Below, piece by piece: positions 3,740 through 42,004 of a DNA stretch of 64,000 nucleotides. The position numbers were made by a program, and so were the translations under genes. The DNA is from an uncultured Gammaproteobacteria bacterium. GTDB taxonomy: Bacteria; Patescibacteriota; Microgenomatia; CAZETR01; Amesbacteraceae. Within the stretch, counting starts at the first letter, position 1. The number at the start of each line of letters is the position of its first letter. Under the pieces are notes generated by a model that saw only the letters and a list, made by a program, of their open reading frames with translations, searched no databases and was not told the DNA's origin. Where the stretch lies: contig CAYHGA010000001.1 in the NCBI GenBank assembly GCA_964356225.1, positions 104,220-168,219 on the forward strand, written 5' to 3'.

Positions 3740-5173
3740 ATGGACAAAAAGTTTTACATTACTGCAGCTATTCCGTATGTCAATGCTAAACCGCATATTG
3801 GGCACGTTCTGGAATTTGTGCAAACGGATACTGTTGCACGGTACCACAAATTGCTAGGTGAAGAAGTGCTGGCATTGTCCGGCGGGGATGAAAATGCCTT
3901 GAAAAATGTGCAGGCGGCGGAGAAGGCCGGGGAGCCAATTAAAGAATTTATTGACAGAAATACGCAGCTTTTTTATGAACTGACAAAAAAACTGAATGTG
4001 CAATTTAACGTGTGGCAAAAAGGCAGCGACCAAAAAACACATTTTCCTTCCAGCCAGAAATTATGGAAACTGTGCAAGAAAGATATCTATACGAAAAAAT
4101 ATAAAGGCTTGTACTGCGTAGGGTGTGAGACGTTTTATGAGAAAGAAGAATTAAATGAAAACGGAGAATGTTTTGAGCATCCCGGGAAAAAATTAGACGA
4201 GGTGGAAGAAGAAAATTATTTTTTCCGGTTGTCCAAGTATCAAGAACAATTAATGAAACTTATTGAATCCGGTGGGTTGGAAATTGTTCCTGAAGAGAGA
4301 AAAAACGAAGTATTGGCTTTTTTGAAAGGCGGTTTGCAAGATATCAGCATTTCCAGATCAAACGAAAGGGCTAAAAATTGGGGAGTGCCAGTGCCGGGAG
4401 ACGACAAGCAGAGAATTTATGTGTGGTTTGATGCTTTAAATATTTACCAGTCGGGAATTGGGTTTGGGTGGGATGAAGAAAAATATACTAAATGGTGGCC
4501 GGCAGATGTACATGTGATAGGTAAAGGAATTATCCGCTTCCACGCAGTATACTGGCCTGCGTTTTTACTTTCCGCCGGACTGAAGCTACCCAAAAAAATC
4601 TTCGTACATGGATATTACACAGTGAATGGACAAAAAATGTCCAAAACACTGGGAAACGTGTATGATCCCCTACCGCTTTTAGAGAAATACGGAGCCGACC
4701 CACTGCGATATTATTGCCTAGCCAAAACTCCGCCGTTTACGGACGGGGATTTTTCAGAAGAAAAATTCATCGAGGCTTATAATTCGGATCTTGCTAATGG
4801 ATTAGGAAATTTGGTGGCCAGGGTGGCGAAACTTGCGGAGCGGGTGAATATTCAATATTCAATATTCAATATCCAATATCCAGATAATAGATTTAAAGAT
4901 ATTAAAAACTTGTTGGATAAATTTAGATTTGATGAAGCGTTAAAAACGATTTGGGGATGGATTTCTGAATTGGATCAACAAATTGAGAAAGACCAGCCGT
5001 GGAAATTGGAGGGGAAGGATCTGGAACAAATTCTGGCGGGCTACCGGGAGAATATTTTGAAAATTGCGACTGCATTACAACCATTCTTACCCCAGACGGC
5101 TGAAAAAGTGCTTAAACAGTTTTCGGGGCCGGAGATTAAAAGTGAATCTCCTTTGTTTCCGAGAATCAAATGA
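3740..5173 (+). CDS. metG: methionyl-tRNA synthetase (short form)
   Basis: Class I HIGH motif (AKPHIGHVLEF) and KMSKS motif (KMSKTLGNV). Overall MetRS architecture including the CxxC zinc knuckle region (CVGCETF). Confidence 0.85.
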   Translation: MDKKFYITAAIPYVNAKPHIGHVLEFVQTDTVARYHKLLGEEVLALSGGDENALKNVQAAEKAGEPIKEFIDRNTQLFYELTKKLNVQFNVWQKGSDQKTHFPSSQKLWKLCKKDIYTKKYKGLYCVGCETFYEKEELNENGECFEHPGKKLDEVEEENYFFRLSKYQEQLMKLIESGGLEIVPEERKNEVLAFLKGGLQDISISRSNERAKNWGVPVPGDDKQRIYVWFDALNIYQSGIGFGWDEEKYTKWWPADVHVIGKGIIRFHAVYWPAFLLSAGLKLPKKIFVHGYYTVNGQKMSKTLGNVYDPLPLLEKYGADPLRYYCLAKTPPFTDGDFSEEKFIEAYNSDLANGLGNLVARVAKLAERVNIQYSIFNIQYPDNRFKDIKNLLDKFRFDEALKTIWGWISELDQQIEKDQPWKLEGKDLEQILAGYRENILKIATALQPFLPQTAEKVLKQFSGPEIKSESPLFPRIK

Positions 5174-5940
5174 TTGACGCCCACTGCCATTTGCAGGAGT
5201 TTGAGGATATACAGGCAATCGTAAGCAGCGCAGGCAAGGCAGGCATTGCGGGCATGATTTGTTGTGGAGCTGATCTGGAAAGTTCAAAAAAAGCTATCGA
5301 AATAGCTGAAAAGTTTGAGCAAGTCTATGCGACTGTTGGATGTCATCCTGACCAAATTTTTAATTTTAAATTTTTAATATCGAGCCCCCTCTCGCGCTTC
5401 GCGAATAATCAATTTTTAAAATTGGCAAAATCTAAAAAAGTCGTGGCTATTGGAGAGTGCGGGCTGGATTTTTTACCAGAGACAAGAAAAGAAGAGAAAA
5501 GTGCTCAGAGAGAATTGCTGAAATTTAATATTGATTTGGCGAAAAAGGCGAGGTTGCCATTAGTGGTGCATTGTAGGAACGCCTTCGCAGATATATTTGA
5601 GATAGTGGATTATGACAAGGTGCAAATGCATTGCTTTACGGGGAATATGGAACAAATGCAGGAATGTGTGAGGCGGGGATGGTATATAAGTTTCGGGGGA
5701 ATTGTGACTTTTAAAAGCAGTCAGGAATTACGAGAGGTGGCGAAGGCGGTGCCGGAGGATAAATTGCTGGTTGAGACAGACGCGCCATATTTGGCTCCAG
5801 AGCCGGTGCGGGGTTCGCGAAACATGCCTACAAATGTTAAAATTGTGGCGGCCAAAATAGCTGAAGTGCGAGGTACTTCAATTAATCAAATTGAAGAAGT
5901 TACTACCGAGAACGCCCGGTTATTTTTTGGATTGAGATGA
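5170..5940 (+). CDS. tatD: TatD family hydrolase
   Basis: MIDAHCHL start, AIGECGLD motif, and HCRNA / ETDAPYL motifs, all typical of TatD DNases. The start overlaps the metG stop (ATGA). Confidence 0.8.
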   Translation: MIDAHCHLQEFEDIQAIVSSAGKAGIAGMICCGADLESSKKAIEIAEKFEQVYATVGCHPDQIFNFKFLISSPLSRFANNQFLKLAKSKKVVAIGECGLDFLPETRKEEKSAQRELLKFNIDLAKKARLPLVVHCRNAFADIFEIVDYDKVQMHCFTGNMEQMQECVRRGWYISFGGIVTFKSSQELREVAKAVPEDKLLVETDAPYLAPEPVRGSRNMPTNVKIVAAKIAEVRGTSINQIEEVTTENARLFFGLR

Positions 5941-7397
5941 CCAAAAGGAGATTATTAGAAATCGTGCCGGGGTTTTTGAGCTGGAACATTATTTTATTTT
6001 TGTTTTGGGGCGGATATTTTTTTCCGGAAATTACTGCGTACTCCATTCTATTATTCGAGGTCTTTTGGGTATACAAGGGAATTTCGCTGGTAGCCGCCGC
6101 CGGTGTGTCTTATATTAAAATCCAGGCGGCGGAAAAATTGAACTGGATGGAAGAGGTGAAAGGGTTCGGAGACTTTAAAAAGGTGAGACACATTGTGCTT
6201 GTGATGGTGGCCAATGAACCCGTAGAAGTCTATAAGAGGACTCTCGAGGCTTTGGCACAACAAACCTTTCCTTTAAGACAATTAGCGGTGGTGATGGCCA
6301 CTGAAGAAAGGTTTCCTAACGGGGCTGTGGAATGTGAAGAGTTAAGAAAAACCTTAGGAAAAAAATTTGGAGACTATATTGTCTCGGTTCATCCCGCAGA
6401 TATCGCGGGAGAAATTAAGGGCAAATCTTCAAACGAGGCTTGGGCCGCCCGGGAAGCCAAAAGGGTTCTGGTAGATAAGAAAAAGTATGACATTAAATAC
6501 ATCACAATTACTTCAAACGACGCAGATGCGATTTTACACCGTCAATACTTCGCGTATTTAACTTTTAAGTTTCTGGACGATCCCAATAGGTATCTGAAAT
6601 TCTGGCAACCGGCAATCGTTTTCTATAACAATATTTGGAGACTGCCGGCCCCCAGCCGGGTGGTAAATACTTTTTCGAATATTTGGCAAGTGGGCTTGCT
6701 GTCCCGTAAAGACCGATTGGTTAATTTTTCCAATTATTCGGCGTCGCTGTCTATGATAGACAAGGTGGGGTACTGGGATACGGACGTGATCCCGGAAGAC
6801 TATAGAATATTTTTTAAAGCCTTTTTCAAATTAGATGGGCAAGTGGAAGTGGAACCGATCTTTTTGCCGTCTTCGGCTGACGCGGCAGAGTCGACTTCTA
6901 TCTGGAAAACATTTATAAACGACTACGAACAGAAAAAAAGATGGGCGTGGGGAGTTTCTGATCTGCCGTTGTTTATCCGCTGGTACCTGAAGGAGCCCAA
7001 GGTTTCATTTTTTAACAAATCTATCCGCATCTTTAGATTACTGGAAGATCATATTATGTGGCCGGTGTATTGGTTTTTTATCACCATGGGGGTAACTATC
7101 TCAACACTGGTTAATCCTAATTTCAGCAGGACATCAATAGGATATATGCTACCAAAGTTTTCATCCACCATTTTGTCAGTTACGACTATTTTTCTTTTGT
7201 TTCTGCTAATTTTTGAGTTTAGGTTGCGGCCAAAACCTGCGAAAAAGAAATTTTTGAGAATGTTAGTGGCCCCGTTAGAATTAATATGGATGCCGGTGGT
7301 AGGATTTTTCTTCGGGGCCTTGCCTGGATTGGACGCCCATACAAGGCTTATGCTTGGGCGCTATCTTGAATACCGGGTCACGGAAAAGGTAGGATAA
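5937..7397 (+). CDS. membrane glycosyltransferase, family 2-like
   Basis: N-terminal TM helices. GT-A-like core (HIVLVMVANEP...ALAQQTFP, TSNDADAIL as a DxD-like motif). C-terminal multi-TM region. Translationally coupled to tatD. Confidence 0.55.
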   Translation: MTKRRLLEIVPGFLSWNIILFLFWGGYFFPEITAYSILLFEVFWVYKGISLVAAAGVSYIKIQAAEKLNWMEEVKGFGDFKKVRHIVLVMVANEPVEVYKRTLEALAQQTFPLRQLAVVMATEERFPNGAVECEELRKTLGKKFGDYIVSVHPADIAGEIKGKSSNEAWAAREAKRVLVDKKKYDIKYITITSNDADAILHRQYFAYLTFKFLDDPNRYLKFWQPAIVFYNNIWRLPAPSRVVNTFSNIWQVGLLSRKDRLVNFSNYSASLSMIDKVGYWDTDVIPEDYRIFFKAFFKLDGQVEVEPIFLPSSADAAESTSIWKTFINDYEQKKRWAWGVSDLPLFIRWYLKEPKVSFFNKSIRIFRLLEDHIMWPVYWFFITMGVTISTLVNPNFSRTSIGYMLPKFSSTILSVTTIFLLFLLIFEFRLRPKPAKKKFLRMLVAPLELIWMPVVGFFFGALPGLDAHTRLMLGRYLEYRVTEKVG

Positions 7398-7401
7398 GGT
7401 T

Positions 7402-8805
7402 ATGCGCAGGTGGTTGGTGGTACATGAGGCAATATTGATGATTTTGGCAGGAGTGGTTTTTTTGCGAATCCCCAGCCTGTTTGAGCCGTATTGGTATGGA
7501 GACGAAGGAATATATCTGACGATCGGGCGGGCGATGCGACACGGGGTGGAACTATATAAAGGAATTCACGACAACAAGCCGCCTTTGATATATACACTGG
7601 CGGCGGTAGCTGACGGGAAGCAATTTTGGTTTAAATTTATTCTGCTGCTGTGGGGTGTGGCTACAGTGGCCGTATTTTGGAATGTATCCCGATACAAGAT
7701 CTGGCCAACGGTGATTTTTGCTGCACTGACTACTTTACCGTTACTGGAAGGCAACATCGCCAATGCAGAATTGTTTTTCTTGTTGTTGACGGTAAGCGCG
7801 TTTGGCCTGGTGTGGAAAAATGACAGCCTGAAAAATATATTCGGAGCGGGGGTTCTGTATGGGATGGCGGGATTGTTTAAAACGCCAGGACTTTTGGAGG
7901 TAGCGGTATGGCCTACTATATGGCTAGTTACCCGGGACCGGGGATGGTTTAAAAAATCGTTTTGGATGGGGGTGGGGGCAGTCATACCGACGGGGCTAGC
8001 CGTTGTCTATTTTTTGGGACGAGGGACACTTCCAGAATTTATGACGGCAGTGGGAATTAAAATGATCCCCTATTTGTCTAGCTGGAATGTGGGGTTACCC
8101 ATTATTGGATCACTCTCGGGGAGGGCCATGTTATTGGTTGGTTGGTTAGGTGTTTTATGGTTAGTGGGAAGAAAAGTACCGAGAACGGTAGTAATTATGG
8201 GAGTGTGGTGGGGGATAGCGCTGTTTTCGGCTTTGCTTTCCGGCCGGCCGTATCCACATTACCTGCTGCAGTTGGTGCCGGTGGTGAGTCTGGTGGCGGG
8301 GGCCGTAGTTTGGGAAGAGAAGAGGGGGAAAATTTTGTGGCTAACAATGGTGGTGACAACAGTTGCGGCTGTGAGCTTATTTAAATTTTATGCGTACCCG
8401 GTGGTGAGCTACTACCAAAATTGGGGCAAGTGGGTAGTGGGGGGGCAGAGCTATGAAACATACACACAATGGTTTAATCCCCAAGTGAAAAACAATTATG
8501 AGATAGCGAAACTGGTAATGGCGGGGAGCCGAGAGAATGAGAAAATTTTTGTGTGGGGAGATCAGCCCATGATTTACGCATTGGCACGCAGGCTACCGGC
8601 AACTAAATACACGGTGGCATATCATGTTAAAGAGTTTGGGGCAGAAAAAGAGACTATAGAAAAATTGCAGCAGACTCCGCCGCGGTATGTAGTGTTGTGG
8701 GGAAACGGAGAAGATCTTCCGGGCTTGACGGAACTATTGAGGCAAGATTACATCCGGGAACAAAAAGAGGGAGAAGCCCAAATATATAGTCTATGGAAAA
8801 TCTGA
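7402..8805 (+). CDS. GT-C glycosyltransferase of PMT/ArnT (GT39/GT83) type
   Basis: Polytopic protein whose first loop has the characteristic YWYGDEGIYLTIGRAM motif of ArnT/PMT-like polyprenyl-phosphate-sugar-dependent transferases. About 10 TM helices, then a soluble C-terminal domain. Confidence 0.6.
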   Translation: MRRWLVVHEAILMILAGVVFLRIPSLFEPYWYGDEGIYLTIGRAMRHGVELYKGIHDNKPPLIYTLAAVADGKQFWFKFILLLWGVATVAVFWNVSRYKIWPTVIFAALTTLPLLEGNIANAELFFLLLTVSAFGLVWKNDSLKNIFGAGVLYGMAGLFKTPGLLEVAVWPTIWLVTRDRGWFKKSFWMGVGAVIPTGLAVVYFLGRGTLPEFMTAVGIKMIPYLSSWNVGLPIIGSLSGRAMLLVGWLGVLWLVGRKVPRTVVIMGVWWGIALFSALLSGRPYPHYLLQLVPVVSLVAGAVVWEEKRGKILWLTMVVTTVAAVSLFKFYAYPVVSYYQNWGKWVVGGQSYETYTQWFNPQVKNNYEIAKLVMAGSRENEKIFVWGDQPMIYALARRLPATKYTVAYHVKEFGAEKETIEKLQQTPPRYVVLWGNGEDLPGLTELLRQDYIREQKEGEAQIYSLWKI

Positions 8806-9128
8806 AGAAAAAATTGGGGCTGTGGAATTGGCGGGTGGTGGCTGCCGGAATAGTGGTGGGGTGGGGACTGACGGTTATATATTGGAAGAGCTTGCCACCA
8901 GAAGTGCCGCTGTTATATAGCCGGCCCTGGGGGCAGGACCAGCTGGTCAGCCCTTATTTTTTGGTAATTCCGCCGATATTTTCGGCCGGGGTGGGGATAC
9001 TTTTGGGCTGGGTAGCTAATAAGTCAGAGGAAGAAAAACTGCTGCCGATTATCATTTTGGTATCGAGCATGGTAGTGCAGATAATTACTGTTTTGGGGTT
9101 AGTGAGAATTGTAATGCTGGTTGTATGA
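8793..9128 (+). CDS. small membrane protein (2-3 TM), function unknown
   Basis: 111 aa hydrophobic ORF. It is translationally coupled between the GT-C gene and the WecA-like gene. Confidence 0.35.
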   Translation: MENLKKKLGLWNWRVVAAGIVVGWGLTVIYWKSLPPEVPLLYSRPWGQDQLVSPYFLVIPPIFSAGVGILLGWVANKSEEEKLLPIIILVSSMVVQIITVLGLVRIVMLVV

Positions 9129-10186
9129 TTGCCTTCCTGATGGCGGCTGCTATTTCCTGGATAGTAACCAGGTGGGTAGTTCAGAATGGCAAAATTTTAG
9201 GAATCATTGACGATCCCAAACAGCACAAACATCCCAAGGTGGTGCACGAGCGTCCCGTACCGCGAGGTGGGGGGATACCCATTTTTGCGGCCCTGATGAC
9301 TATTCTGGTATTTTCCGGCGGAAGTAAACAAATCTGGGGGGTAATTATTGGCGCAGCGATCTTGGCTATAGTGGGTTTCCTGGACGACAGGTATGAGGAA
9401 AAAATATCGCCGTATGTCCGGTTGGGAGTAAATATCCTGGCGGCTCTAGTGGTTATCGGATCCGGAATTGGCATTGCCTATATTACTAGCCCTTGGGGAG
9501 GAGTGATCGATTTATCGTGGCCAAGATGGTGCCTGGGAACACACTGTGTGTGGATTTGGGCAGATGTGTTCGCCTTGATATGGCTGGTGGCGATGCAAAA
9601 TATTGTGGGTTGGAGCAGCGGCGTGGACGGGCAGTTGCCGGGGTTTGTAATAATTGCGGCTATTACTATTGCCCTTTTGGGGTGGAAATTTAACGCGGAT
9701 TTCGGGCAGTGGCCGGTGATTATACTGGCGGCGGTAGTAGCCGGAGCCTACGCGGGATTTTTGCCGTGGAATTGGTATCCACAAAAAATTATGCCGGGGT
9801 ATGGAGGAAAAAGTCTAGCGGGGTTTCTTTTGGGAGTACTGGCCATTATGTCCGGGGCTAAAGTAGGAGCGATGATGCTGGTGCTAGGAATTCCCTTTAT
9901 CGACGCCGCTCTAGTCATAATTAAGCGGTTGCGGGAAGGACGAAGTCCGGTGTGGGGGGGGGACGAACACCTGCACCATTACTTGCTGAAACGGGGGTGG
10001 GGAAAAAGAAGGATCGCCTTGTTCTATTGGATGGCTGCGGCATTAATGGCAGTGGCCGTTTTGCGATTGAATAGTGAATGGAAGTACTTTACAATGGCCA
10101 CAGCTATCCTAGTAATTGGGGGAGTGATTTTATGGTTGCAAGGATTTTTGACTTATTCAAAACGGCCCGACCCCGACAGTGGGTGA
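9125..10186 (+). CDS. polyprenyl-phosphate N-acetylhexosamine-1-phosphate transferase (MraY/WecA family, GT4)
   Basis: Multi-TM protein carrying the DDxxE/D motif (FLDDRYEEK) and overall MraY/WecA topology, with a VWGGDEHLHHY-like C-terminal loop. Confidence 0.65.
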   Translation: MIAFLMAAAISWIVTRWVVQNGKILGIIDDPKQHKHPKVVHERPVPRGGGIPIFAALMTILVFSGGSKQIWGVIIGAAILAIVGFLDDRYEEKISPYVRLGVNILAALVVIGSGIGIAYITSPWGGVIDLSWPRWCLGTHCVWIWADVFALIWLVAMQNIVGWSSGVDGQLPGFVIIAAITIALLGWKFNADFGQWPVIILAAVVAGAYAGFLPWNWYPQKIMPGYGGKSLAGFLLGVLAIMSGAKVGAMMLVLGIPFIDAALVIIKRLREGRSPVWGGDEHLHHYLLKRGWGKRRIALFYWMAAALMAVAVLRLNSEWKYFTMATAILVIGGVILWLQGFLTYSKRPDPDSG

Positions 10187-11076
10187 AGAACTTAACGTTG
10201 TACGCGGGGCTAATTTTTACGGGAAACGTGGCTTCCAGTCTTTTGTGGTGGAGCAATTTTTGGATGGTAACTGAGGCGATATTGGCTTTTACGCTGGTGG
10301 CGATTTCAGTTTACTTTTTGAATGATCTGGTGGACATTAAGGGTGATCAGGCACACCCATTTAAAAAATTTCGGCCGGTGGCAATGGGGAGAATTTCCAA
10401 ATCGACGGCGATGGTGGTATTTCTAGCGGCGGGGGCAGTGGGTTTGGGATGGGCCAGGTCCCTATCTCCCCTTTTTTTCCTGATTGTTTTAGGGTATTGG
10501 GCGCTGCAGATTTTATATTCGCTAGTACTGAAAAACATGGAAGTGGTCGATGTGTTTGTTATCGCTTTGGGTTTCTTTTTGCGGGTGCTGGCGGGAGCGA
10601 TTGTAATTAACGCCCATCTGTCCATTTGGTTTTTGCTATGCGTAATTTCTGTGTCACTCTTTTTGGCAGCGGGAAAACGCCGGGCAGAGTTGGCTATTCT
10701 CACGGAGAAAAATGCTGCGGCCCACCGTAAAGTGATGGGGAAATATACAACAGATATCCTGGACCAATACGTAGGGATGTTTGCTACATCTTCTTATCTT
10801 TCCTGGGCGCTGTATACCTTTAATTTTTACGAGCAGGCACCGTCACTTGTACCGTCGTCTTTGATATTGCTGTCACGAACTTTAACTATAAATAAATGGC
10901 TGATGGCAACAATCCCGGTGGTGATTTTTGGCATTATGCGCTATATCCGCATCATATATGACGGAGCGCGGGCGGAAACTCCAGAGAAAGTGATCTTGTC
11001 TGATTTGCCACTACTAATGTCAGTGGCGATATGGGGAGCGATGGTGGTAGCGGTGTTATATTTGGGACCAATCTAA
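10132..11076 (+). CDS. UbiA-family prenyltransferase, decaprenyl-phosphate phosphoribosyltransferase (DPPR synthase)-like
   Basis: The RPRQWVKNLTLYAGLIFTG motif is diagnostic of the DPPR-synthase branch of the UbiA superfamily. The NDLVDIKGDQAHP region serves as its Asp-rich motif. 8-9 TM helices. Start chosen at MVARIF, which overlaps the upstream gene by about 55 bp. Confidence 0.6.
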   Translation: MVARIFDLFKTARPRQWVKNLTLYAGLIFTGNVASSLLWWSNFWMVTEAILAFTLVAISVYFLNDLVDIKGDQAHPFKKFRPVAMGRISKSTAMVVFLAAGAVGLGWARSLSPLFFLIVLGYWALQILYSLVLKNMEVVDVFVIALGFFLRVLAGAIVINAHLSIWFLLCVISVSLFLAAGKRRAELAILTEKNAAAHRKVMGKYTTDILDQYVGMFATSSYLSWALYTFNFYEQAPSLVPSSLILLSRTLTINKWLMATIPVVIFGIMRYIRIIYDGARAETPEKVILSDLPLLMSVAIWGAMVVAVLYLGPI

Positions 11077-11079: not shown

Positions 11080-11928
11080 TTATTCAAACTTGTCGGCGTA
11101 CTGGGCTGAAATCCAACCGGAGGAAGTGGCGTTAAGATCGACCTTGATGCGATACCAACTGGGAATTTTTTCCAAGAGCGGATACTTTTCTCCGGGCTTG
11201 ACTCGACCTATCTCTTTGGCGCCGGTATTGGGTTCCTGGCGGACCCGCAAGAATCCGGTGGGCGTGTCTTTGATCTCTACGTATGGTTTTTTCAAAGTGG
11301 CGGAGGCGGTGCCTTCTGGTGTGGGAGAGGGAGATGGTGTAGATAGGCTGGCTAGTTTGACGTTGACGTTGAGCTTGTAACCTAAGACCGCTTTGGCGGA
11401 AACGGTGCGGGTGGTAAAACCGGGGGCTGAAACATTAATCTGGTGGTCGCCGGCGGGGATAGAAGGAATAAGAAGCGGAGAAAATCCTTGGGGCTGACCA
11501 TCAAGAGTAACTGAAGCGGAATCCGGACTGGAGGTAATGACGGCCAGACTTGCCACCCGCCTGCCGGCAGGCAGGGATTGGGGTTCAAGGTTGACCACTT
11601 CGCCTGAAGAAGTGAGATCGGAGCCACTAAAATCCCGTTTGACCACGGTATAAGTATTGGCGGTGAGGCGAACTTTGGTTTGGTATGAGGTCAGAGATAA
11701 GGAGGTTGAAGTGGGAATCAGTTTAAGAGTTATTTCGCCAGGCATAAAAATTTTCTCCAGGGGTGCCTGGCCTAGCTGGACATTGTCTACATAAACTAAG
11801 GAGGTGGGAGTAGATTCGACACGCAGGCCAGCGTTGGGCTTCTTGCTCTGGAAGTAGCTAAAAACACCAAAGCCGATGGCGCCGGCCCCGGCCAGGATTA
11901 AAATTATGGCAATGATTTTCTTTCCCAC
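11080..11928 (-). CDS. membrane-anchored surface protein, PEGA/SH3b-like C-terminus
   Basis: N-terminal TM anchor (IIAIILILAGAGAIGFGVF), beta-rich Ser/Thr-rich ectodomain. The C-terminal IPSWYRIKVDLNATSSGWISAQY resembles bacterial SH3 domains. Confidence 0.35.
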   Translation of the reverse strand: MGKKIIAIILILAGAGAIGFGVFSYFQSKKPNAGLRVESTPTSLVYVDNVQLGQAPLEKIFMPGEITLKLIPTSTSLSLTSYQTKVRLTANTYTVVKRDFSGSDLTSSGEVVNLEPQSLPAGRRVASLAVITSSPDSASVTLDGQPQGFSPLLIPSIPAGDHQINVSAPGFTTRTVSAKAVLGYKLNVNVKLASLSTPSPSPTPEGTASATLKKPYVEIKDTPTGFLRVRQEPNTGAKEIGRVKPGEKYPLLEKIPSWYRIKVDLNATSSGWISAQYADKFE

Positions 11929-11970: not shown

Positions 11971-12044
11971 GATCCGGTGGTGAAGTAGTCTAACACGACG
12001 GTCCGCAAAACCGTTATCCGCGGGTGCGAATCCCGCCCGGATCT
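11971..12044 (+). tRNA. tRNA-Cys (anticodon GCA)
   Basis: Manual fold. Acceptor GATCCGG/CCGGATC, anticodon stem ACGGT/ACCGT with loop CCGCAAA, T-arm GCGGG-TGCGAAT-CCCGC, discriminator T. The D-stem is short. Confidence 0.55.
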
Positions 12045-12169: not shown

Positions 12170-12760
12170 ATGTGGAAGAAGCTGACAAATTGGGCGACAG
12201 GCGTGCTGGCAAAGATGAGTCGGCTGGCTAGACCGTGGGCGGCCCACAAGGGCTTGAAGCGAAGTTTGGGGCTGGCGATAGCAGTTTTGGCTATAATTGC
12301 GGCCGTTTGGGGACCTTTTCCGTCTTCGGCTGAGGGGACTGGAGGGAAACTGGAATTGGCCGTTTTACCTGAAGGGGAAGTGGAAGTGCAAACCGTGGAG
12401 GCGGCGCATGTGCCTGTAGAGGATTACCGCGTGTCTCAAGGTTACTGGTGGTTGCATCCGGGGATGGATTTGGCAGCTAAGATGGGCGAACCGGTGTATG
12501 CGGTAGCGGCCGGCAAAGTGGAATATGTGGGCCGGGATAGATTTGGCTATGGAAATCACGTGATTATCAACCACGGAGAATACCAATCTTTGTATGGTCA
12601 TTTGTCTAAAATTGAAGTGGTGGAGGGCCAAGAAGTGACTAAAGACACGAAAATTGGATTAGTGGGTTCTACCGGACATTCTACAGGGCCACATTTGCAT
12701 TTGGAAATCCGGGAGGGAAACAAAACCGTCAATCCCCGCTCCGTGCTGGAGATTAAGTAA
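12170..12760 (+). CDS. M23 family metallopeptidase (LytM domain)
   Basis: Signal/TM segment. HPGMDLAA (HxxxD), GNHVIINHG and GPHLHLEIRE (HxH) motifs are typical of the M23 family. Confidence 0.75.
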   Translation: MWKKLTNWATGVLAKMSRLARPWAAHKGLKRSLGLAIAVLAIIAAVWGPFPSSAEGTGGKLELAVLPEGEVEVQTVEAAHVPVEDYRVSQGYWWLHPGMDLAAKMGEPVYAVAAGKVEYVGRDRFGYGNHVIINHGEYQSLYGHLSKIEVVEGQEVTKDTKIGLVGSTGHSTGPHLHLEIREGNKTVNPRSVLEIK

Positions 12761-12910: not shown

Positions 12911-13471
12911 TCATGTTGTAGCTTTTATTTTATCAAGTAATTGAGGAAATTGGGTATAGCCGGATTCGGCGTTGAAATGACCAGCGTTGGGGACAAGAAT
13001 AAACTCTGCTGAAAGCCGGTCGGCAAAGTCGCGAGCGATATCTAACGGCACATAAGGATCGTTGTCACTAGCAAAACAAACAAATTTTTGGCAATTTTTC
13101 TTGACTTTGTCCCAATCTGCTCCCAAGTCATCAAAGGGGTCGTTTAAAGTTGGGAATGGTTCTTCTGTTACTGGAAGATGCCTAACAAAACCGGCCACGA
13201 AAAAACAGGCACAAATGGGTGATGTGCGGGTCTGGATGTATTGGCAGACGGCTAAGGGCGAACGACTGTGGGCAACAAAGATGAGATCTGTGCCAGCCAA
13301 ATTCTCTACTAAATCGGCAATGACTTTAACCCAATTTTGGGGAGTTTGGCCCTCAGGGGTAGGAAGCTGGGGACGAATGGTTGTATGGCCCAGTTTTTCT
13401 AACTCCCCGACCAACCAAGGAAACCAGTTTTCATTTGGAGACCCTAAGGTACCGTGAAGGATAACAAATTT
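12911..13471 (-). CDS. alpha/beta hydrolase, YdeN/RBBP9-like serine hydrolase
   Basis: MKFVILHGTLGSPNENWFPWL start. Nucleophile elbow in FVAHSRSPL. About 186 aa, typical of this family. Confidence 0.5.
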   Translation of the reverse strand, partial: KFVILHGTLGSPNENWFPWLVGELEKLGHTTIRPQLPTPEGQTPQNWVKVIADLVENLAGTDLIFVAHSRSPLAVCQYIQTRTSPICACFFVAGFVRHLPVTEEPFPTLNDPFDDLGADWDKVKKNCQKFVCFASDNDPYVPLDIARDFADRLSAEFILVPNAGHFNAESGYTQFPQLLDKIKATT

Positions 13472-14067
13472 CATTCTTGAGGCAATTTTAGCACTGCGGA
13501 TTTGGCAGAAGTCAAATCGATCCATTTCTCAACATAAATTCCAAGAGTTTGAGCTACTTTGATATTCTCGTCTGAGTCATCGAAATAAATGCATTCTTCC
13601 GGTTTGAGATGATTTTCGGATAAAATAAGTTGCAAGGCTTCTATCGATGGTTTGACAAGACCGGTTTCCCAGGAAAAATAGGCTTTATCCACGCATTGAA
13701 AAATTTGGGGAAAATTCTTTCTGTAAAATTCCGTTCTTTCTTTGAAATTATTAGAGAGAATAAAAACTTTAATCCCCTTGTTTCGAAGACACACAGCATA
13801 TTCGACCAATTCGGGCACTAGATGTTCTCCGGAAAACCAGAAGTCAAAAAATTGCTGTTCGGTTAGGGGAACTTGCCATTGATCTAAGTACGGTTTCCAA
13901 AGAGAGAAAGCTGCTGGGGCATCTGGCTGTCTAACAACAACCATTATTTCTTTGAGAGCGGGAAGAAATAAATCTTTGGCTACGTCAAACTTTTCTTCAA
14001 ATCTGCTACTCAGCGGTTCACTTAGCAGAAAAACGCCATTGAGGTCGAAGATGACGGCTTTAAACAT
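13471..14067 (-). CDS. HAD superfamily hydrolase
   Basis: Motif I at the N-terminus (MFKAVIFDLNGVF). The C-terminal YFDDSDENI is motif IV. Confidence 0.6.
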   Translation of the reverse strand: MFKAVIFDLNGVFLLSEPLSSRFEEKFDVAKDLFLPALKEIMVVVRQPDAPAAFSLWKPYLDQWQVPLTEQQFFDFWFSGEHLVPELVEYAVCLRNKGIKVFILSNNFKERTEFYRKNFPQIFQCVDKAYFSWETGLVKPSIEALQLILSENHLKPEECIYFDDSDENIKVAQTLGIYVEKWIDLTSAKSAVLKLPQE

Positions 14068-24860: not shown

Positions 24861-25455
24861 GAGCTGCGGCGGGAACTTCTTTGGGTTCTTCTTTAGCCAG
24901 AGGTTCAATCTTTACAACAATGGCTTCGGGGTCGGACTTGACGGTCAGTTTGTCAGACAACTGGATATCCTTGATCTGGAGAGTATCTCCTTCTGCGGCC
25001 AAGGATTCGATAGATATTTCAACTGATTCTGGCATATCCGCAGGTAAGGCTTCGATTTCTAGTTCGCTAAGCTGTTGAACCAAAATCCCCTGTTTCTCTT
25101 TTTCAGCCGGAGCCTCTCCGATGAGCTTTATAACTACCGGAGCGGTAGTTTTTTCTTTGAGGTTAACCTGGTGAAAATCGACGTGAAGAATTTGGTCTGT
25201 GACGGGATGAAGGGCTACGTCGTGAACCATGACGGGGCGGTTTTCTTTTTCTCCCTCAACTGTTAAGTAAATGAGGGTGGACTCCCCTACTTCTTTATAG
25301 AGCTTGGTGAAATCAACCGTCTTTATTTGAAGAGAGAGAGATTTTAAATCCTTGCCAAAAACGTTTGCGGGGATAAATCCCTGAGTACGCAGGGACTTGA
25401 TCTTGCGACCAGTTATCTTACGAGGTTCGACTTTTAGGGTGTGTTTAGTTGACAT
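24766..25455 (-). CDS. rplY: 50S ribosomal protein L25 / general stress protein Ctc
   Basis: MSTKHTLKVEPRKITGRKIKSLRTQGFIPANVFGKD N-terminus. The low-complexity AP/E-rich tail overlaps the valS 3' end. Confidence 0.8.
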   Translation of the reverse strand: MSTKHTLKVEPRKITGRKIKSLRTQGFIPANVFGKDLKSLSLQIKTVDFTKLYKEVGESTLIYLTVEGEKENRPVMVHDVALHPVTDQILHVDFHQVNLKEKTTAPVVIKLIGEAPAEKEKQGILVQQLSELEIEALPADMPESVEISIESLAAEGDTLQIKDIQLSDKLTVKSDPEAIVVKIEPLAKEEPKEVPAAAPTPEAEAPAKAEESAAPETPTPATPPPSQTA

Positions 25456-27526
25456 TTAGTACTCCTTGGGCAAAGTCTACGTCGAAATGCAAATAGTGCG
25501 ACAGGCGTTCATTATACTGGAGCCGGCCGGCAGAGGCAAGGGCGGGTGTGGTGATGGTAGTGGCAAACCACCATTTGGGATAAGTAACCGTGACTGAAAG
25601 TGGATATGGCAACTGGCCGGGTTGATTGGGAATATCCAGTTGATAGTGAAAACGAGAAGGGGCGACGAGCGGCTGGTGCCAACGAACAACAAGTTGGGCG
25701 ATGGTGGCGGGTGGAGTGTCAACGAGAACCCCCAATACTGTCAGGCCGTGCTCTGTGGTAACGTGATAAGCGGCAACAGGTTGGTCATTAATTGTAACTG
25801 CGTCAGGTAGGGACTGGGGGGAGAGATATAAGCGAATATAATTTTTGTTGTGCCCGGAAGGCCAATTAGTTTGGGAAGAGGTGTGGGTAAAATTAGCTTG
25901 GTATTGAAAGTCCGCCCTGGAGGTATTAAGTTGAATTGCCAGCTGGGCTGTGGGTTGAATAGAAACATTAGTTTTGTTGATGCCAACGTTACTACTGACA
26001 GCATAGAAATATAATTCCAAACAAGGGAGCGAGGAACGGCAAGGGGGAGGTGCGACTCCCCCATCCCACACAGTAGAGGTGATAAAGGTTTGACGGGATT
26101 CAAGAGAGTTGATCATTACTCCAATTGCGGTAGACAGTTGGCTTAAATTTAGGGAGCGAAGCTGGTCGAAGAAATGTTGATAAAAAATAGTTAGAAAATC
26201 CGGGTGGGCTAGATATTGAGAAAAAAAGTTTTGTTTAGTAACTGTGAGATTAAGCTCTGAAAGCCGGAGAGGGCCGACTTCGGAAAGGAGTTCAACCAAA
26301 GTTCCCAAGTGAACACTGGCAACCCGATCCGGAGTAAGAGAGAGCTCTTTGTTAACAAACCAAATTGCGCGGGCAGCGGAAGAAGGAAAATCCGGATCCC
26401 AATTTGAGTCACGGAGAAACCAGGTTGACTCCCCCATTGCTCTGGCCAGGTCTGCGGGGGGAGAAATTTGACCACGCAGTTGGCTGTCGGTGGCAGCGGT
26501 GTCGTAAATTTGAATGTTAGTTAGACGACCACTGTCTATATTTAGGAGCGCGAAGTGACTGAGGAACCCACCTGTGGAACGTAATTCAGTGGGATCTTGC
26601 AGTAATAAAAGAACGGTGCTTTTACCATTTAACGACAAAAGGTCCGGCAATGAAGAGACGAGGGGAGAAATTTTTTGGGTAAAAATCCGGGCGGTGTTTA
26701 CACGGGCCAGAAGAGGACCCAGACGAGGAAGTGATTGGAGACTAGCCTGAAGAAAGGCCAGGGAGTCTGTGAGACGAGACAACGTAAAAGCCAATTCAGC
26801 TACGTCTGAAGACGGGGGTTGGCCATGACCAAAAAACGATTGGAGATATGGAAGTGAACGAGAGGCGAATTGGTTGGCAAGAATTAAGGTGTCAGATAAT
26901 TGATGAGAGACAACTAAATACGGTGAAATTTGTGGAGACAAGCGTAAAAGTCCGGATGATAATTTTGCACAAGTAAGCGATGTGGAGAAATTTCCGCGCA
27001 GGAATTGAGACGCCGAGCAGCGGAGAAGGCTGTAGAGAACAAGGGGGTACAAGAGAATAAGAACAAAGGCTAAGAGGGGAACGGTCGACCTGGCTTTGGC
27101 GATGTGTTTGGGCGGGGGCTGATAGTAAGGAAGAAAAGAGCGGATAACTTCCGCAGCCGCGGACGAATCGTCTAAGCCGGCAGGAATTTCTAGAATCCGG
27201 TAGTCTAAATGAAAGTTGCGGCTAAATTGAGTGACTAAGGAAACGGCTCCTTCTTGAAGTGGGGTTGTATTTTGATTTACGACGAGAAGAAGTTTTGCTT
27301 GTTGCTGTAGTGTTTGATCTAGGTGGGCATGAAGATGGCCAAGAGGTGTGGAGCTGGTTAGATAAATAATTATATTGGCTGGTTTTGTATCTTGGGTGGA
27401 GATTGTCTCGATCTCTGGCAGTGTCTGTAACTGGGAAATGATTTCCGCAGACAGAGGGAGATGGGGGTGGGTAACCAGAATCCGGGTACGGGCAGATGTT
27501 TGTTCGATTAATAGTCTAAGTGACAT
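25445..27526 (-). CDS. large membrane-anchored extracytoplasmic protein, function unknown
   Basis: 693 aa with a single TM segment (LLAFVLILLYPLVLYSLL) and a long extracellular region. No catalytic motif recognised. Confidence 0.35.
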   Translation of the reverse strand: MSLRLLIEQTSARTRILVTHPHLPLSAEIISQLQTLPEIETISTQDTKPANIIIYLTSSTPLGHLHAHLDQTLQQQAKLLLVVNQNTTPLQEGAVSLVTQFSRNFHLDYRILEIPAGLDDSSAAAEVIRSFLPYYQPPPKHIAKARSTVPLLAFVLILLYPLVLYSLLRCSASQFLRGNFSTSLTCAKLSSGLLRLSPQISPYLVVSHQLSDTLILANQFASRSLPYLQSFFGHGQPPSSDVAELAFTLSRLTDSLAFLQASLQSLPRLGPLLARVNTARIFTQKISPLVSSLPDLLSLNGKSTVLLLLQDPTELRSTGGFLSHFALLNIDSGRLTNIQIYDTAATDSQLRGQISPPADLARAMGESTWFLRDSNWDPDFPSSAARAIWFVNKELSLTPDRVASVHLGTLVELLSEVGPLRLSELNLTVTKQNFFSQYLAHPDFLTIFYQHFFDQLRSLNLSQLSTAIGVMINSLESRQTFITSTVWDGGVAPPPCRSSLPCLELYFYAVSSNVGINKTNVSIQPTAQLAIQLNTSRADFQYQANFTHTSSQTNWPSGHNKNYIRLYLSPQSLPDAVTINDQPVAAYHVTTEHGLTVLGVLVDTPPATIAQLVVRWHQPLVAPSRFHYQLDIPNQPGQLPYPLSVTVTYPKWWFATTITTPALASAGRLQYNERLSHYLHFDVDFAQGVLNVN

Positions 27527-27775: not shown

Positions 27776-28183
27776 TTATGAGATTTTATCAAGAGTCTGG
27801 TTGACAAGATGGTCGGCGGCGGAATTTTGCTCCCGAGGTATGTATGTAAAATTTTTAATTTTTAATTTATAATTTTTAATTAATTCTTTAATTTCTAAAT
27901 TTTTAATTTTTAGACCTGGGTCTTTGATTTTGAATAGGCCTTTAAGCTGGCTAACAACAAGCTGAGAATCTAGATAATAGTTCACGGTTATTGGTTCATG
28001 GTTCATGGCAGACAACCACTTAAGAGACTCGATGACGGCTTGGTATTCGGCCTGGTTGTTGGTAGCAATTCCTAAATAAAAACCTTGTTGGTGAATTAGG
28101 CGGCCAGAATCATCTGTGGCTACAAAGGCGCAAGCGGCTGGTCCGGGATTACCTCTGGCTCCCCCATCGGTATGAATAAGCAT
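27776..28183 (-). CDS. rnhA: ribonuclease H (type 1, RNase HI-like)
   Basis: IHTDGGARGNPGPAACAFV start, NNQAEYQAVIESL motif, and a C-terminal YIPREQNSAADHL motif. Confidence 0.75.
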   Translation of the reverse strand: MLIHTDGGARGNPGPAACAFVATDDSGRLIHQQGFYLGIATNNQAEYQAVIESLKWLSAMNHEPITVNYYLDSQLVVSQLKGLFKIKDPGLKIKNLEIKELIKNYKLKIKNFTYIPREQNSAADHLVNQTLDKIS

Positions 28184-29321: not shown

Positions 29322-29773
29322 TCCTTTGGAGAGATAACTACGGTTCTAAAACGGCCCTCGCCTTGGGACCCGGTGGTAACTTGGGGGTGGTCGGTGAGAT
29401 AGACATGGATAATGCGGCGTTCGTTGGAAGGGAGGGGGGGGAGGGCTTCTGGTTGATGAGTGGTTACTACCCGACCAACAACGGTGTCTGCCATGGCGTG
29501 AAGGGCCTGCTGGCGGCGTTCCCGATAGTCATTGACGTTTATAGAAATACTGGTCCATTCGGAAGCTTGAGAGTGGAGGTGTTGGGATAGGAGCAACTGC
29601 AAAGAGGAGATGGTGTCCCCGTGATAGCCAACAAGAATGGCCGGGTCAGAAGTATTAATAGTTATTTGATAAATTTTGTTTTCGGGGTCAAAAACTACCG
29701 TGGCCTCGTAAGGAGAAGCGTAACCTAATTGGGTGAGAAATTGAGATAATAATTCCCGAATTTTATCTTCCAT
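29318..29773 (-). CDS. Jag/KhpB RNA-binding protein (KH + R3H)
   Basis: Jag_N-like start. The R3H region is ERRIIHVYL. It sits in the conserved position after yidC. Confidence 0.7.
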   Translation of the reverse strand: MEDKIRELLSQFLTQLGYASPYEATVVFDPENKIYQITINTSDPAILVGYHGDTISSLQLLLSQHLHSQASEWTSISINVNDYRERRQQALHAMADTVVGRVVTTHQPEALPPLPSNERRIIHVYLTDHPQVTTGSQGEGRFRTVVISPKE

Positions 29774-30572: not shown

Positions 30573-30753
30573 GACTGAATGGGTGACAGTGTAAAATGCG
30601 CCAGCTACCCATCAAAACGCCTCTCAGGATACCATATTTATCTATAGCTTGGTAGGTGTATTCGCTGCAGGTGGGGTGGAAACGGCAAGAAGAGTGCAGG
30701 CTAGTGGGAAAGTTTTGATACCAGCGAATTAAGCGCAGTACTAATTTCTTCAT
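30565..30753 (-). CDS. yidD: membrane protein insertion efficiency factor YidD
   Basis: 62 aa. Carries CRFHPTCSEYT...HCHPF motifs. Confidence 0.8.
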   Translation of the reverse strand: MKKLVLRLIRWYQNFPTSLHSSCRFHPTCSEYTYQAIDKYGILRGVLMGSWRILHCHPFSHG

Positions 30754-38045: not shown

Positions 38046-38048
38046 AGA

Positions 38049-40783: not shown

Positions 40784-40792
40784 TTCTATGAA

Positions 40793-41623: not shown

Positions 41624-41656
41624 TTTAAACAGTGCTCAGATAAAAGAGAAAAGTGC

Positions 41657-41899: not shown

Positions 41900-41986
41900 A
41901 GGCAGGCTAAATCTATACTGAGTACTTCTCTCTGAGCACTGAGTACTAGTCAATAGTACCCCGTGAAGTCTTTTGTGCAAGTTGCG

Positions 41987-42004
41987 GGCTTTTTCACACA
42001 AAAG
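41987..42004. repeat. 18-bp direct repeat GGCTTTTTCACACAAAAG, copy 1, upstream of mntA
   Basis: An identical 18-mer recurs at 42884-42901 immediately after the hepT stop. Both copies lie upstream of a TTGTAG...TATAAT-like promoter. Confidence 0.55.

Follow-up and report, generated by a model that had tools for sequence, protein, structure and literature searches.

Five genes at positions 5937–11076 of the window, the whole 64,000-nucleotide stretch of DNA that was analysed, form an operon whose products probably add a ribose-type sugar, supplied on a lipid carrier, to the cell surface. We give a probability of about 50% to the reading that this operon is a Microgenomates-wide envelope glycosylation system and a variant of three-component extracytoplasmic pentofuranosylation; the mechanism would then be an established one, with the lineage (the ultra-small CPR bacteria) and the set of parts as what is new. 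Pentofuranose systems composed of a PPPRS, a flippase and a GT-C transferase have been published as a general paradigm (PMC11127046), and a PPPRS next to a GT-C is less unusual than the first-pass annotation implied.

The five open reading frames of that annotation were all present on the + strand. They encode a membrane, cellulose-synthase-like GT2 (5937–7397; 486 aa; PF13632, E 2e-8), a GT-C fold glycosyltransferase (7402–8805; 467 aa), a small membrane protein (8793–9128; 111 aa; no Pfam family), GT4, which is a divergent PNPT (WecA/MraY) family protein (9125–10186; 353 aa; PF00953, 77 bits), and a UbiA-superfamily PPPRS/DPPRS-like enzyme (10132–11076; 314 aa). GT2 and GT-C are separated by a 4-nt gap. 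The genes of GT-C, the small protein, GT4 and UbiA overlap in series, which speaks for the proposed pathway; the overlaps are 13 nt, 4 nt and 55 nt, the last if UbiA starts at ATG 10132. This start, given by the gene caller, is preceded by an SD-like GGGAG about 7 nt upstream, and an alternative ATG lies upstream at 10078. The translational chaining of the five genes was thus borne out as tight packing, but the chain equally covers the housekeeping genes MetRS (3740–5173, +) and TatD (5170–5940, +), which lie outside the glycosylation function and extend it through the 4-nt overlaps MetRS/TatD and TatD/GT2. Therefore, chaining alone is no mark of a functional unit. On the other side, a gene for a PEGA + SH3_3 membrane-anchored surface protein (11080–11928, −; 282 aa; PF08308, E 1e-15; PF08239, E 6e-10) is convergent to UbiA and was found directly downstream in 69 of 80 related loci; this neighbour is conserved and might conceivably serve as an acceptor. 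Pilin-like genes (PF18895) were located 40 kb away, and none adjoins the operon.

A GT-C relative was encoded in 495 GTDB species genomes, and the best 80 related loci were compared. The order GT2 – GT-C – small ORF – GT4 – UbiA recurred in these, with GT4 present in 74, GT2 in 65 and UbiA in 63 loci, and an ORF of 102–151 aa was found between GT-C and GT4 in 74/74 loci. The full order was retained in 63 of the 73 complete loci, down to 33–35% GT-C identity, and the arrangement is far beyond chance. The named hosts were Amesbacteria, Woesebacteria, Shapirobacteria and Blackburnbacteria, and the nearest named relatives (Candidatus Amesbacteria, Woesebacteria) agree with the CPR-like genome recognised at first pass. 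The source contig came from a Hainich groundwater 0.2 μm metagenome. Other neighbours were syntenic as well (MetRS in 48, TatD in 21 and M23 peptidase in 42 of the 80 loci), and the conserved order may come partly from low rearrangement in these genomes. Taken to its end, this would mean that the five genes share no pathway, and that compact Microgenomates genomes merely keep an ancestral order in which stop/start overlaps are the norm. The inclusion of MetRS and TatD in the overlap chain and the synteny of MetRS, PEGA-SH3 and M23 peptidase fit such an explanation, which we nevertheless consider quite improbable: the five proteins are all membrane enzymes of glycoconjugate synthesis, where relatives carry additional genes within the block, these too are GT-Cs (one or two, PMT_2 or PTPS_related, between GT2 and GT-C in many relatives) and a sugar-nucleotide SDR, and the PPPRS/GT-C pairing has recurred independently in actinobacteria and proteobacteria (PMC11127046).

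The UbiA protein carries the motif ARPRQWVKN (PF01040, 67 bits) and scored 209, 177 and 147 bits against the NCBIfam DPPRS models, the best being NF008977 (E 8.5e-62), for which 209 bits is just under the equivalog cutoff of 234. Its sole PDB sequence match at E<1 was Mycobacterium tuberculosis Rv3806c (8j8j; E 1e-35; 35.6% identity over 222 aa). Ten Rv3806c residues with PRPP/Mg-binding roles (R22, K28, Y70, N73, D77, K87, R90, Q135, Y138 and K143; PMC10994848) were all retained in the window protein and in 62–64 of 64 UbiA orthologs, and phosphoribose-binding residues set Rv3806c apart from other members of the UbiA superfamily (PMC10994848). Y157 of Rv3806c is replaced by F, a change also seen in some mycobacteria. 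These sequence features strongly suggest a DPPR-synthase-like PRPP-dependent phosphoribosyltransferase, as the first-pass annotation had supposed. Some JGI records name orthologs '4-hydroxybenzoate polyprenyltransferase', and an aromatic prenyltransferase (MenA, UbiA, heme-O synthase) would stand outside glycosylation. Such an identity is hardly credible, since models for quinone, heme-O, chlorophyll and GGGP prenyltransferases gave at most 46 bits against the 209 bits of DPPRS, aromatic prenyltransferase structures gave no match at E<1, and the phosphoribose-binding residues are conserved; kinship with menaquinone or heme-O prenyltransferases is effectively refuted by these data.

The decaprenyl-phospho-arabinose pathway, to which the genes had been likened, was not recovered. 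Homologs of DprE1/DprE2 were not detected by tblastn at E<1 in the window and the 80 related loci, together 1.42 Mb, and the conserved block contains neither a PAP2/HAD phosphatase nor a recognised flippase (GtrA, MATE, Wzx). With neither DprE1/DprE2 nor any other epimerase linked to the operon, ribofuranose is a likelier lipid-linked sugar than arabinofuranose. Among PPPRS systems, those without an epimerase are associated with Ribf, and some product is still formed after loss of the dedicated phosphatase (PMC11127046). Of the earlier proposal of a lipid-linked pentose or other unusual sugar donor for glycosylation, the DPPRS-type UbiA and the GT-C fold were borne out, whereas the arabinose analogy was not supported.

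The AF2 model of GT-C (pLDDT 91) displayed a GT-C fold of about 11 TM helices, followed at the C-terminus by a presumably extracytoplasmic alpha/beta domain of about 140 aa. The YWYGDEG loop motif noted at first pass lies within EPYWYGDEGIY (residues 28–38), in which E28, P29, Y30, Y32, G33, D34 and E35 were invariant in 37 homologs; D34-E35 in the first outer loop (EPYWYGDE) are the putative catalytic residues. Further invariant residues on the outer face are D57-N-K-P-P61, E116..E123, K160, R241 and R282-P-Y-P-H-Y287, and a C-terminal motif FVWGDxP is conserved. The label PMT/ArnT-type is only approximate: the window protein had no Pfam match and its orthologs matched PMT_2 at threshold only (27 vs 26 bits). 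ArnT (GT83) has 13 TM helices against 11 here, and, compared with ArnT and PMT (GT39), MIR and TPR domains are absent from the window protein. The characterised PMT_2-family members ArnT and PMT use polyprenyl-monophosphate sugars, and synthesis of such a sugar in the operon is expected of UbiA only. A profile of the 37 family members found no PDB sequence at E≤1. The best Foldseek E-values were to AglB, STT3 and PglB, and the model was no nearer to arabino-/ribofuranosyltransferases than to mannosyltransferases or OSTs. GT-C matched no characterised family in these searches.

UbiA was absent from 10 of the 73 complete loci, through at least two independent losses. The other four genes of the operon are still present in these loci, and 69 of 78 conserved positions, catalytic loop included, are intact in their GT-C; therefore, GT-C is not strictly dependent on a linked UbiA, and the pairing of the two proposed at first pass, observed in 63 of the best 80 loci, is not obligatory. 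This leaves a sizeable though lesser possibility that the core consists of GT-C, the small protein and GT4, that UbiA is optional, and that the GT-C donor does not come from UbiA. The donor would then be a polyprenyl-(P)P-linked HexNAc or a glycan assembled on the product of GT4, used in an OST/ligase-like manner, or a polyprenyl-P-hexose made elsewhere, and the target a surface protein or wall polymer; where UbiA is present, its product would enter a separate decoration, possibly via the extra GT-C paralogs of relatives. The three genes occur together in 74/74 loci that extend far enough, and the top Foldseek E-values and the additional GT-C genes of relatives point the same way. On the other hand, GT-C has FVWGDxP and no WWDYG-type OST motif, and the window holds a single GT-C, leaving no other user in the operon for the UbiA product. 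GT4 itself, with about 10 TM helices, retains the DD and HLHH motifs, and scored 80.6 bits with the WecA and 58 bits with the MraY model, both far under cutoff. Alignment to two MraY structures showed that the Mg-binding catalytic Asp of FMGDxGS is replaced by Tyr/Phe, and this and a second Asp, both essential in MraY/WecA (PMC5039524), are missing in all 75 GT4 orthologs, so that GT4 may not carry out polyprenyl-PP-HexNAc synthesis at all.

GT2, GT-C and the small protein might instead constitute a classical Gtr/CsbB-GtcA-YfhO-type system, in which GT2 would supply a polyprenyl-P-hexose for flipping by the small protein and for transfer on the outside by GT-C; UbiA and GT4 would belong to a separate step nearby. 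Such systems (Mann & Whitfield 2016, cited in PMC11127046; PMC5836110) have a PF00535 GtrB/CsbB donor synthase and a 4-TM GtrA-family flippase. The scheme of making a lipid-linked monosaccharide inside, flipping by a small membrane protein and GT-C transfer outside would be shared with the window, and the gene order is similar; the window departs from them in the synthase-like QxxRW GT2, a small protein without GtrA signature and the PRPP-dependent UbiA. The three genes are immediate neighbours in the window and most loci, all UbiA-less loci retain GT2, and none of the adequately flanked loci lacks both GT2 and UbiA (counts 44, 8, 7, 0), but this zero is not significant, about one being expected. 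We consider this explanation unlikely. GT2 has two N-terminal and about four C-terminal TM helices and the motifs N194-D-A-D197 (DxD), P286-E-D288 and Q332-K-K-R-W336 (QxxRW), conserved in 64 orthologs, and its PF13632 match, QxxRW and six TM helices are as in processive synthases; a partial PgaC/IcaA match was also obtained, and orthologs were 64–83% identical. GtrB, DPMS and ArnC, by comparison, are PF00535 proteins not known to carry QxxRW. The GT2 AF2 model was poor (pLDDT 53), and from it Foldseek returned PcManGT, hyaluronan synthase and BcsA, with GtrB at rank 40. Moreover, in seven loci that carry both GT-C and UbiA, the 4–10 kb upstream contain no GT2. The small protein has about three TM helices and a predicted outward-facing loop after TM1 with LPPxVPLxYSRPWGxxQL, kept in the alignment; no Pfam family matched at E≤10, GtrA (PF04138) included, except a spurious FtsX (E 0.044). 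Its role might be that of an accessory subunit or of a flippase.

Under the preferred reading, pentofuranosylation, the UbiA enzyme would transfer 5-phosphoribose from PRPP to polyprenyl phosphate at the cytoplasmic face, a step strongly suggested by its ligand residues. The 5-phosphate would be removed and the lipid-linked ribofuranose flipped outward, with the conserved 3-TM small protein as the sole candidate helper in the operon. The 11-TM GT-C, with its outward D34-E35 loop, may then transfer the pentofuranose to an extracellular acceptor, most plausibly a polymer formed by the neighbouring GT2, which is cellulose-synthase-like, or some other glycoconjugate of the wall or surface. Weighing against this pathway are the UbiA-less loci, the block's lack of phosphatase, epimerase and recognised flippase, the chain and synteny with MetRS, TatD and M23, a fold search neutral on the GT-C donor type, and the sub-cutoff UbiA score (209 vs 234).

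PPPRS genes adjoin GT-C in mycobacteria and in O-antigen/glycan loci of Citrobacter, Xanthomonas and Bacillus (PMC11127046). In Citrobacter youngae O1/O2, ORF15 is a PPPRS-PRP, ORF14 a MATE flippase and ORF12 a GT-C of family GT136 (Kelly et al. 2024, PMC11127046). Both there and in the window, a UbiA-type PPPRS stands beside an 11-TM GT-C with a C-terminal extracytoplasmic domain, and the modification is predicted to occur post-polymerisation, outside the cytoplasm. The C. youngae locus has a fused HAD-type phosphoribose phosphatase and a MATE transporter, both absent from the window operon, where the synthase-like GT2, the atypical PNPT and the novel small membrane protein are additional. 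By description, not sequence, the C-terminal domain of GT136 is a beta-rich CBM, whereas that of the window GT-C is a small alpha/beta domain; the hosts are a Gram-negative bacterium with O antigen and a CPR bacterium, respectively.

Pilin D-Araf modification in Pseudomonas aeruginosa Pa5196/PA7 employs the PPPRS PsPA7_6246, DprE1/E2 homologs, the GtrA-like 6247 and the GT-C TfpW (bioRxiv 10.1101/2020.04.19.049825). It shares with the window a PPPRS and an 11-TM GT-C with an acidic motif in the first periplasmic/outer loop, essential in TfpW, and a surface protein could be the target in the window too. TfpW, however, has 646 aa and a C-terminal TPR domain and is encoded beside pilA with epimerases present, whereas no pilin gene is adjacent in the window. 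The mycobacterial/corynebacterial DPA pathway comprises the UbiA protein Rv3806c, Rv3807c, DprE1/DprE2, Rv3789, AftA-D and EmbA-C, and is WecA-primed. The window shares with it the Rv3806c-like UbiA and a GT-C partner, and its WecA-family gene and GT2 in one block recall the logic of arabinogalactan, with a WecA primer, a GT2 galactan and GT-C arabinosylation.

The five genes occupy window positions 5937-11076 on the plus strand and encode, in order, a GT2 protein (5937-7397, 486 aa), a polytopic GT-C protein (7402-8805, 467 aa), a small membrane protein (8793-9128, 111 aa), a PF00953 protein, GT4 (9125-10186, 353 aa), and a UbiA-family protein (10078 or 10132 to 11076). At the first junction there is a 4-nt gap, and at the next three the genes overlap by 13, 4 and 55 nt; the 55-nt value assumes that UbiA begins at ATG 10132, the public gene-call start, with GGGAG located about 7 nt upstream of it. 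Both motifs quoted in the first-pass annotation were recovered, EPYWYGDEGIY as residues 28-38 of the GT-C protein and ARPRQWVKN near the N-terminus of UbiA. The translational chaining it had described was also found throughout the five-gene run, but it does not mark a functional unit, because the same stop/start chain extends upstream through tatD (5170-5940, +) and the MetRS gene (3740-5173, +), which implied that chaining is a trait of this compact genome. Promoter and terminator scans returned counts at or near chance and were uninformative. Relatives of the GT-C gene were collected by scanning the genomes of GTDB species with a pattern, which gave 495 loci, and the best 80 of them, with identities from 83% down to 33%, were analysed. 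TatD was rejected as a pathway member, since it was present in 21 of these 80 loci and MetRS-TatD is a frequent housekeeping gene pair.

UbiA had been read as a DPPR-synthase-like enzyme, with the menaquinone/heme-O prenyltransferases as the competing group. The NCBIfam models for DPPR synthase gave 209.2 bits (NF008977), 177.5 bits (NF008978) and 147 bits (NF008976), the first two narrowly missing the equivalog cutoffs of 234 and 207, whereas the models for quinone, heme-O, chlorophyll, GGGP and tocopherol prenyltransferases all scored 46 bits or less. Among all PDB sequences, two constructs of Rv3806c, the UbiA-type DPPR synthase of M. tuberculosis, were the only matches at E<1 (8j8j, E 1e-35), and the two proteins are 35.6% identical over 222 residues. 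In Rv3806c, pyrophosphate is contacted by R22, K87, R90, K143 and Y138, ribose by Q135, and the 5-phosphate by K28, Y70 and Y157, while N73 and D77 serve as Mg ligands; these phosphoribose contacts are not common to the remaining UbiA superfamily (PMC10994848). The Rv3806c numbering was rebuilt from a HMMER alignment, and 64 Microgenomates UbiA orthologs were aligned. The results showed that R22, K28, Y70, N73, D77, K87, R90, Q135, Y138 and K143 are all identical in the window protein (10/10) and are kept in 62-64 of the 64 orthologs; the position of Y157 is occupied by Phe, a variant that also occurs in some mycobacteria. Model scores, PDB match and ligand residues thus favoured a PRPP-dependent polyprenyl-phosphate phosphoribosyltransferase, and the quinone/heme prenyltransferase reading was rejected, an aromatic prenyltransferase being extremely improbable. 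Judged by these comparisons of sequence, DPPRS is the UbiA subfamily nearest to this protein. In public records its orthologs go by differing names ("UbiA prenyltransferase", "decaprenyl-phosphate phosphoribosyltransferase", "4-hydroxybenzoate polyprenyltransferase"), and some orthologs already carry the DPPRS name at NCBI and JGI.

The second protein had been described as a PMT/ArnT-type GT-C transferase, of which the fold held and the type is approximate. In the AF2 model built from the family alignment (pLDDT 91.2, pTM 0.90), about 11 TM helices precede a C-terminal alpha/beta domain some 140 residues long, and a GT-C fold, with a multi-TM core and a putatively extracytoplasmic domain, is beyond doubt. 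The window protein had no Pfam match even at E<=10 and no NCBIfam match, two orthologs (P0028 and P0085) barely reached PMT_2 (PF13231; 27.5 and 27.3 bits against a cutoff of 26.1), and a 37-sequence profile matched no PDB sequence at E<=1, hence neither ArnT nor PMT. A Foldseek search of the model against the PDB returned AglB, STT3 and PglB (E 3e-6 to 3e-4) and AftA (1e-4); no characterised family stands out, and the protein is no nearer to the arabinofuranosyltransferases. Specific relatedness to the pentofuranosyl GT-C enzymes (GT53 Emb, GT85 AftA, GT89 AftB, GT136 ORF12 and TfpW) was not found among the PDB sequences and structures searched. The same profile search reached 12,962 clusters at 50% identity with E<=1e-3 and 813 with E<=1e-30, and some orthologs carry PF27757 as a precomputed annotation. 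D34-E35 within EPYWYGDE is invariant among the 37 sequences and is kept in the loci without UbiA as well; D57-N-K-P-P61, E116/N121/E123, K160, R241 and R282-P-Y-P-H-Y287 are also invariant. The helix map and the positive-inside N-terminus predict that these residues all lie in outward-facing loops or at outer helix ends, a placement that would be expected for the active site of a GT-C enzyme with a pocket for polyprenyl phosphate.

The GT2 protein matches PF13632, has TM helices at both ends, and carries the motifs N-D-A-D (194-197), P-E-D (286-288) and Q-K-K-R-W (332-336), which are conserved in 64 orthologs. This signature is, at the level of sequence, that of cellulose-synthase-like, usually processive, membrane GT2s. 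No PDB sequence matched the protein, and its AF2 model was poor (pLDDT 53), so the matches that Foldseek returned, PcManGT, hyaluronan synthase and BcsA, with TM-scores of only about 0.3, are indicative only. The small membrane protein has no detectable family; in 74 of 74 loci a counterpart ORF (102-151 aa) separates GT-C from GT4, and these ORFs have in common about three TM helices and an LPPxVPLxYSRPWGxxQL loop, which is strongly conserved and whose predicted orientation is outward. The gene order would suit a Gtr-like system composed of GT2, GT-C and the small protein, but the QxxRW synthase signature of GT2 and the small protein's want of a GtrA signature argue against it, making such a system rather improbable.

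GT4 had been called a WecA/MraY-family transferase. It belongs to PF00953 (77.4 bits; cutoff 27) and falls far under the equivalog cutoffs for WecA (80.6 against 326) and MraY (58 against 192). D87 and D88 of the DD motif are invariant among 75 sequences, as are D168 and HLHH. In the alignment to two MraY structures, Y226 takes the position of the Mg-binding catalytic Asp of FMGDxGS (AaMraY D265/BsMraY D231), and S165 that of the first Asp of NxxNxxDGxDG (BsMraY D174), both of which are essential in MraY (PMC5039524). Among the 75 Microgenomates orthologs, position 226 is Tyr in 57 and Phe in 18, never D or E, and position 165 is S, K or T. The earlier designation therefore stands for fold and family, as indicated by PF00953 and the DD motif, but, as its sequence lacks the catalytic Asp, it is unlikely to be a HexNAc-1-P transferase of the canonical kind; GT4 would be a conserved PNPT-fold protein whose active site is non-canonical, or else one that has been repurposed.

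Comparison of the related loci showed a recurring order of GT2, GT-C, small ORF, GT4, UbiA, a convergent PEGA/SH3 gene and an M23 peptidase gene. In the best 80 loci, GT4 was present in 74, PEGA in 69, GT2 in 65, UbiA in 63, MetRS in 48 and the M23 peptidase in 42. In the window, the membrane-anchored PEGA + SH3_3 protein (11080-11928, -) is convergent with UbiA, with 3 nt between the stop codons, and is followed by a tRNA gene (11971-12044, +) and the M23 peptidase gene (12170-12760, +). All named records among the related loci belong to Amesbacteria, Woesebacteria, Shapirobacteria, Blackburnbacteria or the "Microgenomates/Patescibacteria group", and the closest named relatives are Candidatus Amesbacteria, which bears out the earlier description of the genome as CPR-like. 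The contig itself traces to Hainich groundwater (0.2-um metagenomes) and to a 232-kb MAG contig at NCBI. Among GTDB records with this Microgenomates-type operon, many, TPA records among them, bear the title "uncultured Gammaproteobacteria bacterium" and one bears "Nevskiaceae" (loci L008, L014, L020, L023-L027, L036 and others); those with the former title include a chromosome (0.81 Mb) and a contig (1.0 Mb). The shared operon, the gene content and these sizes suggest that such titles are placeholders or mislabels.

The proposed pairing of UbiA with GT-C was borne out as linkage in most loci and not as a strict rule, for UbiA is cleanly absent from 10 of the 73 complete loci, where GT4 adjoins PEGA directly and the other four genes of the run are retained (loci L027, L039, L063, L066, L069, L073, L078, L081, L084 and L086). 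On the GT-C tree these loci form one 7-member clade and three other branches, which implied at least two losses. A switch of specificity residues in GT-C of the loci without UbiA was considered and rejected: 69 of the 78 family-conserved positions are kept, the catalytic loop included, and the 9 that differ are all conservative and clade-specific, none of them in the catalytic loop. No sign of a donor switch was thus seen among the 78 positions. The UbiA losses, together with the OST-like Foldseek matches of GT-C, speak for a core made up of GT-C, the small protein and GT4 that uses another donor, with UbiA as an accessory, an explanation that we regard as possible though somewhat unlikely. 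There is a slim chance that the genes are neighbours by synteny alone and share no common pathway. One of the loci without UbiA, L086, has two class-A PBP genes immediately upstream.

Other parts of the block vary as well. Seven loci retain UbiA without a GT2 gene within 4-10 kb upstream; complementary loss of GT2 and UbiA was rejected (counts 44, 8, 7 and 0; not significant). Relatives often carry additional glycosylation genes between GT2 and GT-C (L009:7289-9972; L045:8622-9938; L040:8263-9942; L051:8955-9899(-); and equivalents in other loci). Among them are a further PMT_2-type GT-C (about 430-445 aa) with an "SLWGDE" loop, a GT-C paralog with 36% identity, a PTPS_related (PF10131) membrane protein, and, on the opposite strand, an NAD-dependent epimerase/dehydratase of the extended-SDR type, about 314 aa long. 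The best NCBIfam models for this SDR, all below cutoff, were dTDP-glucose dehydratase (147 bits), LegB, GalE and then UDP-4-keto-pentose/UDP-xylose synthase (124 bits), and it could supply or modify a pentose. In view of the UbiA losses, the GT2 absences and the inserted genes, the block is an envelope-glycan locus that varies around a stable core.

Further envelope-glycan genes lie about 15-20 kb from the operon, encoding a DUF4012 protein (25445-27526, -, 693 aa) and a protein of the Wzy_C/O-antigen-ligase family (28149-29321, -, 390 aa), which might use a lipid-PP-linked glycan. They are followed by an origin-type gene set, with genes for a Jag-like KH/R3H protein and YidC and rnpA (29318-31009, -), dnaA (32694-34055, +) and dnaN (34211-35317, +); GC skew is positive (0.09-0.43) over all 64 kb, its sign unchanged at dnaA. 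A large block at 35314-54639 resembles a type-IV-secretion or pilus system. On its minus strand lie genes for a VirB4/TraG-like ATPase (38049-40424), a PrgI-domain protein (40793-41623) and a GH5 cellulase-family protein (47243-49231), as well as a tandem array (about 51340-54639) of no fewer than six small PF18895 "T4SS_pilin" genes; several large proteins encoded in the block have no family match. Two PF05635 "23S rRNA IVP" genes are scattered through it together with an MNT/HepT toxin-antitoxin pair (about 42032-42884, +). Near the right end of the window are a tmRNA gene (60797-61134, -, 161 bits) and two tRNA genes (63301-63388 and 63923-63994, both +).

To assess the arabinose-type logic that had been proposed from the first-pass annotation, DprE1 and DprE2, the 2'-epimerase pair of the decaprenyl-phospho-arabinose pathway, were used as queries after they had been checked against the PDB DprE1 and DprE2 chains (1058 and 546 bits). 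Neither gave a tblastn match at E<1 in the window and the 80 loci (1.42 Mb), which argues against that logic. Pfam searches with nearly all window genes revealed no PAP2, FAD-linked oxidase (FAD_binding_4), short-chain dehydrogenase (adh_short), GtrA, MATE or Wzx, and the conserved block encodes neither a PAP2/HAD phosphatase nor a flippase of the MATE, GtrA or SMR type; the flippase slot of this PPPRS + GT-C block is occupied by the small, uncharacterised 3-TM protein. A HAD gene at 13471-14067, considered as the missing phosphoribose phosphatase, was rejected as a linked partner, since it is syntenic in 1 of 80 loci. In the systems studied by Kelly et al., some product remained after the dedicated phosphatase was inactivated, and a pathway without an epimerase gave Ribf (PMC11127046); the want of a phosphatase gene is thus not fatal.

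As the best overall explanation, to which we give a probability of about 0.5, we propose that UbiA would convert PRPP to polyprenyl-phosphate-ribose-5-phosphate, that other factors would dephosphorylate and flip this lipid, and that GT-C would then transfer the pentofuranose onto an extracellular acceptor. The sugar would be ribofuranose, unless an unlinked epimerase exists, and the acceptor may plausibly be the product of the adjoining synthase-type GT2. A wider reading joins all parts into a so far unrecognised, class-wide Microgenomates pathway for a secondary cell-wall glycopolymer, with a logic like that of mycobacterial arabinogalactan, in which GT2 would make the backbone, a new GT-C family would add PRPP-derived, polyprenyl-phosphate-delivered ribofuranose outside the cell, and two novel components would stand in for the usual helpers: the 3-TM protein would act as flippase or GT-C subunit, and the PNPT-fold protein without catalytic Asp would have taken a new role in lipid-carrier handling, flipping or altered chemistry. 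In its entirety this wider reading is unlikely.

The envelope chemistry of CPR/Patescibacteria is known nearly entirely by genome inference, and CPR cells rely on surface contact with their hosts. The conserved operon, which predicts a lipid-linked pentofuranose donor and of whose GT-C a relative is encoded in 495 GTDB species genomes, would offer a concrete and testable handle on the coat of a whole CPR class. If the proposed mechanism is true, the PRPP-dependent polyprenyl-phosphoribose route would reach beyond actinobacteria and the Gram-negative O-antigen and pilin systems, and the catalogue would gain an atypical PNPT along with a GT-C family not yet characterised. The PPPRS/GT-C principle has been published and described as widespread (PMC11127046); as the mechanism is already established elsewhere, the gain is in scope and parts list rather than in principle. 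A literature search found no paper linking CPR/Patescibacteria with DPPRS or the GT-C. What is new here is the lineage and the composition, namely an uncharacterised GT-C family, a conserved small membrane protein and a PNPT without catalytic Asp, with no fused phosphatase, MATE or GtrA protein. This last trait distinguishes the operon from the pentofuranose systems with three components that Kelly et al. described (PMC11127046). PPPRS and GT-C are linked here, and the proposed mechanism would share its logic with those systems, with the mycobacterial DPA pathway and with TfpW pilin arabinosylation.
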